Made by a program: the position numbers and the translations under genes. The notes under the pieces were generated by a model. It had not been told where the DNA came from. It saw nothing but the letters and a program-made list of their open reading frames with translations, and ran no database searches. This document shows positions 24,845 to 25,320 of a DNA stretch of 64,000 nt, one piece after another; positions within the stretch are counted from its first letter, which is position 1, and every line of letters starts with the position of its first letter. Location of the stretch: assembly GCF_054482595.1 (NCBI RefSeq), contig NZ_CM137008.1, one strand, 5' to 3'.

Positions 24845-25320
24845 AATGACTGCCTACGGGCGAAATGTAGGCCGGATAAGGCGTTCACGCCGCATCCGGC
24901 AGTCGTGTGCAGATGCCTGATGCGACGCTTGCGCGTCTTATCAGGCCTACAAATTCCCGCGCCATCCGTAGGCCGGATAAGGCGTTTACGCCGCATCCGG
25001 CAGTCGTGCGCAGATGCCTGATGCGACGCTTGCGCGTCTTATCAGGCCTACAAATTCCCGCGCCATCCGTAGGCCGGATAAGGCGTTCACGCCGCATCCG
25101 GCAGTCGTGTGCAGATGCCTGATGCGACGCTTGCGCGTCTTATCAGGCCTACAAATTCTCGCGCCATCCGTAGGCCGGATAAGGCGTTCACGCCGCATCC
25201 GGCAGTCGGGTGCAGATGCCTGATGCGACGCTAACGCGTCTTATCAGGCCTACAAATTCTCACGCCACCCGTAGGCCGGATAAGGCGTTTACCGCATCCG
25301 GCAGTCGTGCTGGGATGGGC
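24845..25320. repeat. REP/BIME array, about 4.5 tandem units of roughly 101 bp
   Basis: Near-identical units containing GCCGGATAAGGCGTTCACGCCGCATCCGGC and GCCTGATGCGACGCTTGCGCGTCTTATCAGGCCTAC; approximate bounds. Confidence 0.88.

Follow-up and report, generated by a model that had tools for sequence, protein, structure and literature searches.

What is the repeated DNA between the Escherichia coli genes mhpE and mhpT, how did it come to its present size, and does it influence the expression of its neighbors? The question arises from a 64,000-nucleotide stretch of E. coli DNA (contig NZ_CM137008.1, called the window in the following), in which most of the 577-bp gap between the two genes is taken up by tandem repeats. 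The repeats form an array of repetitive extragenic palindromic (REP) sequences of the type termed bacterial interspersed mosaic element 2 (BIME-2), and the array is an already catalogued element, REP31 of strain K-12. Taken as a whole, this identification and the structure, the origin and the roles in the mhp operon that are proposed below can be held with considerable confidence.

Tandem Repeats Finder reported a single tandem array at 24867-25309 with a period of 101, 4.4 copies, 95% matches and no insertions or deletions (score 802). An independent repeat search of the array yielded three 202-nt copies at a spacing of 101 bp, which were 96-100% identical. When the 577-bp intergenic region was compared with itself, the identity was 0.73 at a lag of 101 and 0.66 at a lag of 202, versus a mean of 0.25 and a maximum of 0.32 at the remaining lags and a top value of 0.37 in 500 shuffles. 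Thus, it was verified that the region has the periodicity on which the original prediction, made from the letters alone, had hinged. The predicted number of 4.5 units of 101 bp was accurate, and the predicted span of 24845-25320 brackets the array with a surplus of about 20 nt at one side and 10 nt at the other.

A consensus scan revealed that the array contains five Y and four Z2 REPs, which strictly alternate in strand through all nine, and each of the nine has GTAG (Y) or CTAC (Z2) at one end, as read on the plus strand. The scan gave no match to a Z1-type REP inside the array. The core consensus of the integration host factor (IHF) site, WATCAANNNNTTR, was found on neither strand of the array, which excludes BIME-1, and both linkers between the REPs are short (14 and 17 nt) and devoid of an IHF site. 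BIME-2 elements are defined by Y and Z2 REPs in multiple tandem copies with short linkers and a strain-dependent copy number (Ton-Hoang et al. 2012, PMC3333891). The repeat between mhpE and mhpT is an ordinary non-coding BIME-2 cluster in which nothing atypical was seen, and the earlier assignment to the REP/BIME repeats in general could thus be refined. A CRISPR array was also considered and was rejected, since the entire 101-bp unit including the linkers repeats at 95% identity and unique spacers are lacking.

On the plus strand each unit consists of a Y REP (GTAGGCCGGATAAGGCGTTCACGCCGCATCCGGC, 34 nt), a 14-nt linker, an inverted Z2 REP (GCCTGATGCGACGCTTGCGCGTCTTATCAGGCCTAC, 36 nt) and a 17-nt linker; four such units are followed by a terminal Y REP. 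The locus has the following components:

24867-25309: whole BIME-2 array (REP31 in K-12), four full 101-bp units, then the terminal Y REP and 7 nt that are homologous to a linker
24867-24900, plus strand: Y REP no. 1, GTAG...GGC on the plus strand (consensus scan, alignment, hairpin)
24968-25001, 25069-25102 and 25170-25203, plus strand: Y REPs nos. 2-4
24901-24914: linker L1, AGTCGTGTGCAGAT, 14 nt, joining the non-GTAG ends of Y and Z2, recurring at +101, +202 and +303
24915-24950, minus strand: Z2 REP no. 1, GTAG on the minus strand (consensus scan, hairpin)
25016-25051, 25117-25152 and 25218-25253, minus strand: Z2 REPs nos. 2-4
24951-24967: linker L2, AAATTCCCGCGCCATCC, 17 nt, between the GTAG/CTAC ends, recurring at +101, +202 and +303
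25271-25302, plus strand: Y REP no. 5, the terminal one and nearest to mhpE, lacking 2 nt of the inner stem through a deletion
25303-25350, minus strand: 48-nt spacer from the mhpE stop codon (TAA, 25353-25351) to the first REP
24774-24866, minus strand: 93-nt non-repeat spacer from the array to the mhpT start codon (the mhpT 5' leader), without a sigma-70 consensus match
25351-26364, minus strand: mhpE, 4-hydroxy-2-oxovalerate aldolase, the upstream gene
23562-24773, minus strand: mhpT, 3-hydroxyphenylpropionate transporter, the downstream gene, with the RefSeq start
24847-24854: 8-mer TGACTGCC, an inverted copy of GGCAGTCA, paired in the minimum free energy (MFE) fold
25340-25347: 8-mer GGCAGTCA, the partner of TGACTGCC

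The terminal Y REP no. 5 is the first hairpin to be transcribed after mhpE. Linker L2 has 47% C on the plus strand and thus 47% G in the sense of the mhp mRNA. The heptamer GGCAGTC marks the Y-to-L1 junction in each unit, and six of its nine occurrences in the window fall into the mhpE-mhpT gap. The two inverted 8-mers bracket the array, and in the MFE fold they pair and close off the array in its entirety; they may be what is left of REP ends, or else a feature of the target site. That the flanking genes are mhpE and mhpT and share a strand had been stated correctly before; the names agree with the RefSeq annotation of strain XH990, which is 100% identical, and both genes lie on the minus strand. 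The mechanically called mhpT reading frame begins 15 codons upstream (ATG at 24818, 418 amino acids) of the RefSeq start (24773, 403 amino acids).

In K-12, REP31 is listed at 374931-375366 between the 'tandem' pair mhpE-mhpT (Harris et al. 2026, Table S16). K-12 MG1655 shares with the window the locus, the flanking genes, the 577-bp gap and the (Y-Z2)4-Y architecture, and the two alleles are about 97% identical. The RefSeq feature table of K-12 has no repeat_region feature at mhpE-mhpT. The element has also been met in another context: 'the REP between mhpE and mhpT' participates in 20% of the amplification or rearrangement junctions that were sequenced near lac, and its secondary structure was drawn and the hotspot ascribed to its potential to form structures (Lin et al. 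2011, PMC3161906). As expected for derivatives of F' pro-lac, the 231-kb F' plasmid of JM109 (NZ_CP117961.1) carries mhpE-REP-mhpT with n = 4 and of the K-12 type. What is added here is a series of alleles with approximate frequencies, the homoplasy in size between the window and K-12, and the orientation, which is inverted in comparison with the related array REP325.

The number of units was compared among E. coli strains, as the original prediction had advised, and the copy number was found to vary. Five alleles were fetched, and evenly spaced samples of 53 and 35 loci were drawn down ranked match lists. The intergenic regions of the five fetched alleles have lengths of 175, 276, 377, 478 and 577 bp, corresponding to (Y-Z2)n-Y with n = 0-4 and with identical flanks. 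The two samples were distributed as follows:

n = 4: 14 of 53 loci and 8 of 35 loci
n = 3: 0 of 53 loci and 2 of 35 loci
n = 2: 3 of 53 loci and 1 of 35 loci
n = 1: 7 of 53 loci and 5 of 35 loci
n = 0: 29 of 53 loci and 18 of 35 loci
Truncated locus: 0 of 53 loci and 1 of 35 loci

The allele with a single REP was the commonest and made up about 55% of the 53 sampled loci, and no allele longer than n = 4 was present among the 53 and 35 sampled loci. In agreement with these counts, a query coverage of at least 80% was reached by 2,142 of 5,480 records. Just 30 of the 5,480 records had an identity of at least 99% to the window over a 1.2-kb query spanning the array.

The alleles of the window and of K-12 match in length but differ in make-up. 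In the window three of the Z2 loops are TTGC and one is TAAC, whereas all four are TAAC in K-12 REP31, and the Y REP with the 2-nt deletion adjoins mhpE in the window, whereas K-12 has a degenerate deleted Y that adjoins mhpT. This indicated that one size has been reached via separate histories. The degenerate Y variant GGACAAGACG adjoins mhpT in K-12, whereas in VTB97584v and the B strain it adjoins mhpE, and plain gain and loss of units does not explain its placement. Because equal-length alleles differ internally, the array length is a risky phylogenetic character.

How could such an array arise and change its size? The query spanning the array matched 5,425 of 5,426 complete E. coli genomes, with the median genome showing 27 matching places; the mhp array belongs to a dispersed, genome-wide REP/BIME-2 family. 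Its paired inverted REPs also form the unit of the REPIN/RAYT system of Pseudomonas and of the E. coli REPtron (rayT/yafM). A Y1 HUH transposase is believed to mobilize such pairs (Ton-Hoang et al. 2012, PMC3333891). In K-12 rayT lies at about 248 kb, beyond the region that the window covers. The REP-associated transposase RAYT/TnpA-REP probably seeded the founding REP, and the array would then have grown and shrunk through events between its units, namely unequal recombination, slippage in replication or a switch of template. For the change in unit number, recombination or slippage is a simpler explanation than mobilization by RAYT.

The closest paralogue is REP325, which lies between yjdM and yjdN, with 90.2% identity over 442 bp. 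It was the best match in TG1, a K-12 derivative that lacks the mhp region. REP325 has the same 101-bp register, also consists of Y and Z2 REPs, has a near-identical 17-nt linker and is likewise situated between co-oriented genes. However, it comprises six units (12 REPs) instead of the 4.4 units of the mhp array, and its 14-nt linker is AACGGTGCCGACT, compared to AGTCGTGTGCAGAT in the mhp array. The two arrays also differ in orientation. REP325 is transcribed in the orientation of the plus strand of the window, while mhpE and mhpT are read from the minus strand. With respect to transcription, the mhp array thus has the inverse orientation, and the mhp mRNA contains the complement of the units that resemble the nucleoid-associated RNAs (naRNAs), naRNA1-6, of which REP325 is the source.

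Which roles could the array have for the mhp genes? Upon induction of the mhp operon, transcription from mhpE would enter the array. The REP hairpins would block 3'->5' exonucleases and provide the mhpABCDFE message with a protected 3' end, and they may also attenuate read-through into mhpT, partly via Rho, so that the transporter would be kept below the level of the catabolic enzymes. Attenuation and protection would probably increase as units are added. As DNA, the array is probably also a gyrase-binding site.

As RNA, the Y REP is predicted to form a hairpin of -21.3 kcal/mol (z = -4.9) and the Z2 REP a hairpin of -20.5 kcal/mol (z = -5.9), and the terminal Y REP with its 2-nt deletion is predicted to fold still (-17.2 kcal/mol). 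As an alternative, a Y and a Z2 REP together may form one hairpin of 84 nt (predicted, -47.9 kcal/mol). For the whole intergenic RNA the predicted values are -297.9 kcal/mol (z = -11.2) in the mhp sense and -276.1 kcal/mol (z = -8.8) in the antisense. Very stable hairpins are predicted for the RNA of either strand. Over the 16 Y REPs of the window, 97.7% of the stem cells are paired. Just one compensatory change, from a C-G to a U-A pair, was observed among them; it switches between arrays and probably represents a single event, and is thus weak evidence for covariation.

Two groups of known systems bear on these roles. At malE-malF and hisJ-hisQ, as at mhp, REPs separate an upstream gene with strong expression from a co-directional downstream gene whose expression is lower, and they have been proposed to be a barrier to 3'->5' exonucleases; at mhp such an effect is predicted only. 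Newbury and co-workers are said to have tested these REP stabilizers in polycistronic operons experimentally in 1987. The second system is REP325 itself. Its deletion at the native locus led to an about 8-10-fold higher level of yjdN and an about 3-fold lower level of yjdM (Harris et al. 2026, bioRxiv). In the same preprint, REP325 was expressed as a ladder of truncated RNAs that contain hairpins, bicyclomycin raised the read-through from 23% to 39%, and it was concluded that REP325 stabilizes the upstream mRNA and attenuates the downstream gene in a partly Rho-dependent manner. Across the genome, tandem pairs with REPs between the two genes were biased toward expression of the upstream gene (Harris et al. 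2026). The suggestion of the original prediction, that the transcript might be processed or partially terminated between mhpE and mhpT, fits the behavior of REP325 by analogy only. Judged by the same analogy, the chances are about even that protection of the 3' end or attenuation of mhpT has a measurable effect at the mhp locus.

Several points speak against these roles. A literature search for data on the transcript, 3' end or half-life of mhpE-mhpT found nothing usable. The mhp array is inverted in comparison with REP325 and its 17-nt linker is G-rich and not C-rich in the mRNA, so that a Rho-dependent component could be weaker at mhp. A C>G skew was not seen across the mhp-sense transcript (C/G 0.67-1.23). 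The effects of REPs depend on the context, constructs with 2-4 hairpins were not sensitive to Rho, and over the whole genome half-lives were no longer for genes terminated by REPs (Harris et al. 2026). The occurrence of a single REP in about 55% of the sampled E. coli indicates that a large array is dispensable. Lastly, mhpE and mhpT are not mentioned in the accessible part of the supplement text of the gyrase study of Sutormin et al. (2019).

Some further observations concern Rho. Orientation was considered as the decider of Rho dependence, because the 17-nt linker is C-rich in the orientation of REP325 only; it was retained as a caveat only, since in the mhp orientation it is the 14-nt linker that is rich in C. 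A scan of the C>G composition of both strands revealed a slight asymmetry only and was uninformative. REPs in general lack a C>G skew, yet a partial Rho dependence is possible (Harris et al. 2026, preprint). A site bound by Rho in vitro, M_N10_352 of the NusG-plus set, is situated 35 bp from REP31, at 375401-375492 on the minus strand of K-12 (Harris et al. 2026, Table S16). It maps to about 24740-24831 on the plus strand of the window, antisense to the 5' end of mhpT. A different mechanism, the stalling of ribosomes, is unlikely at mhp because the first REP follows the mhpE stop codon at a distance of 48 nt. According to Liang, Rudd and Deutscher, in work from 2015, REP-mediated stalling reportedly needs a REP that is no more than about 15 nt away from the stop codon.

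The alternative that survives best is that the array is a selfish or neutral repeat, a by-product of REP proliferation and slippage, and that mhpT has its own promoter regardless of the array. It is possible, though doubtful. The natural range from one to nine REPs with the single REP as the commonest state would agree with it, as would the unlike interior of equal-length alleles, which resembles drift, the context dependence of REP effects, which were absent for several reporters (Harris et al. 2026), and the unique leader of 93 nt that precedes mhpT. However, in all sampled strains that bear the locus, one or more intact REP hairpins have been kept downstream of mhpE. In addition, a sigma-70 consensus promoter was not found in 24500-25700, which includes the array and the stretch between the array and mhpT. 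The neutral account also has to cope with the 8-10-fold alteration of downstream expression by the near-identical REP325 and with the upstream-biased expression of REP-containing tandem pairs throughout the genome.

Another explanation places the function at the level of the DNA: the array would be a strong, transcription-independent gyrase site or topological buffer, and its cruciform-prone DNA would make it a hotspot of recombination. Gyrase cleavage sites are over-represented in BIME-2 elements, mostly in Y REPs, and cleavage rises after rifampicin, but just a subset of the BIME-2 arrays is cleaved, of which sucC-sucB and tldD-yhdP were named (Sutormin et al. 2019, PMC6379681). The mhp array itself is a hotspot of junctions, which was ascribed to its secondary structure (Lin et al. 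2011, PMC3161906), but the hotspot status would be a side effect and not a function. As the main explanation a DNA-level element is unlikely; it is compatible with the roles in mRNA protection and attenuation and does not exclude them.

A third proposal is that the array is a locus of the naRNA4 type, which encodes small RNAs (sRNAs) that bind HU, bridge REP cruciforms and condense the chromosome. A search with the Rfam model naRNA4 (RF02564) detected four units on the plus strand with 88.0, 91.3, 88.0 and 83.6 bits, which is above the gathering score of 59.5. These strong matches are antisense to mhpE and mhpT, however, and the minus strand, i.e., the mhp sense, reached 58.6-62.3 bits. The model was built on one Y-linker-Z2 unit of REP325, and it matches the mhp array because REP325 is both its source and the closest paralogue of the array. 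A match to a single BIME-2 unit thus indicates membership in the repeat family and not an sRNA gene. The original model of Qian et al. (2015) concerned the RNA of REP325. For that array, Harris et al. (2026) found an unaffected nucleoid volume, no stable ternary complex of HU, DNA and RNA, and no HU-dependent contacts between REPs, and their preprint shares an author with the original work. Therefore, the HU/naRNA4 model of nucleoid condensation is largely refuted for REP325, and a naRNA locus at mhp is very unlikely.

It is even harder to believe that the array is an ordinary cluster of intrinsic (Rho-independent) terminators that closes the mhp operon. GC-rich hairpins do lie directly downstream of mhpE, but no REP hairpin has a U-tract after it, and a scan of 24500-25700 for a hairpin plus U-tract found no intrinsic terminator in the array. 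The only terminator-like match, at 24739-24719 on the minus strand, is inside the mhpT coding sequence and at chance level (one found versus 1.4 +/- 1.3 expected). This terminator-like hairpin plus T-run, GCCTGATGCTGACCATCGGGC TTTGTTTTTT, sits 35-55 nt into the mhpT coding sequence on the minus strand.

Open reading frames (ORFs) of 70-71 amino acids were found within the array on both strands and in several frames. One of them, 'MRRERLIRPTDGAG...', is present at 24885-25097 on the minus strand and again at 24986-25198 on the minus strand. A Pfam search gave no match for two repeat-derived ORFs. In strain FDN-24 the Prokaryotic Genome Annotation Pipeline (PGAP) annotated, within the array, a pseudogene of a 'hypothetical protein' that is partial and frameshifted, at positions 653-946 of the fetched locus. 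The unit of 101 bp is no whole number of codons, and a reading frame therefore cannot be maintained between natural alleles, which differ by entire units. A genuine small protein of repetitive sequence as the product of the array (the MRRERLIRPT... ORFs) can be dismissed, since despite the ORFs on both strands and one coding sequence placed there by PGAP, a Pfam match is lacking, that coding sequence is a frameshifted pseudogene, a palindromic repeat would be expected to give ORFs on both strands and in several frames, and natural alleles vary by whole units. It was thus verified that the ORFs are spurious, as had been proposed, and masking of the array as REP/BIME-2 is advised so that they are not called as genes.

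The mhp array is not the only REP cluster of the window, in which the consensus scan detected 36 REP matches. A larger BIME-2 array lies between prpE and codB (47082-47798), with a period of 94 bp, 7.6 copies, 93% matches and about 16 REPs, and its Y REPs have a variant stem, GTCGG...CCGAC. The K-12 counterpart, REP26, is listed with 171 bp (354600-354770), which indicates that this array has expanded in the strain of the window. A further BIME-2 array between frmB and yaiL (22607-22897) has three Y and three Z2 REPs, spurious ORFs of its own, and naRNA4 matches of 89.9 and 71.8 bits on the minus strand. Solo REPs are present at 40140-40173, 40817-40848, 44291-44323 and 52494-52530, which the consensus scan assigned to one Y, two Z1 and one Z2.

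What would the array mean for E. coli? It is a documented fragile or rearrangement-prone site next to lac, which is relevant when local duplications or amplifications are interpreted. The natural alleles with one, three, five, seven and nine REP hairpins at one inducible junction are a test bed for the dual terminator-stabilizer model, and they are also suited to unravel whether the orientation of an array versus transcription matters. It is tempting to speculate, tentatively, that the unit number n = 0-4 acts as a heritable and fast-mutating dial of the read-through into mhpT and of the stability of mhpABCDFE. If this were true, the equal-length but unlike alleles of the window and K-12 would reflect repeated, independent resetting of the dial, and lineages would differ in their ratio of 3-hydroxyphenylpropionate transporter to enzymes without any change in a promoter or a coding sequence.

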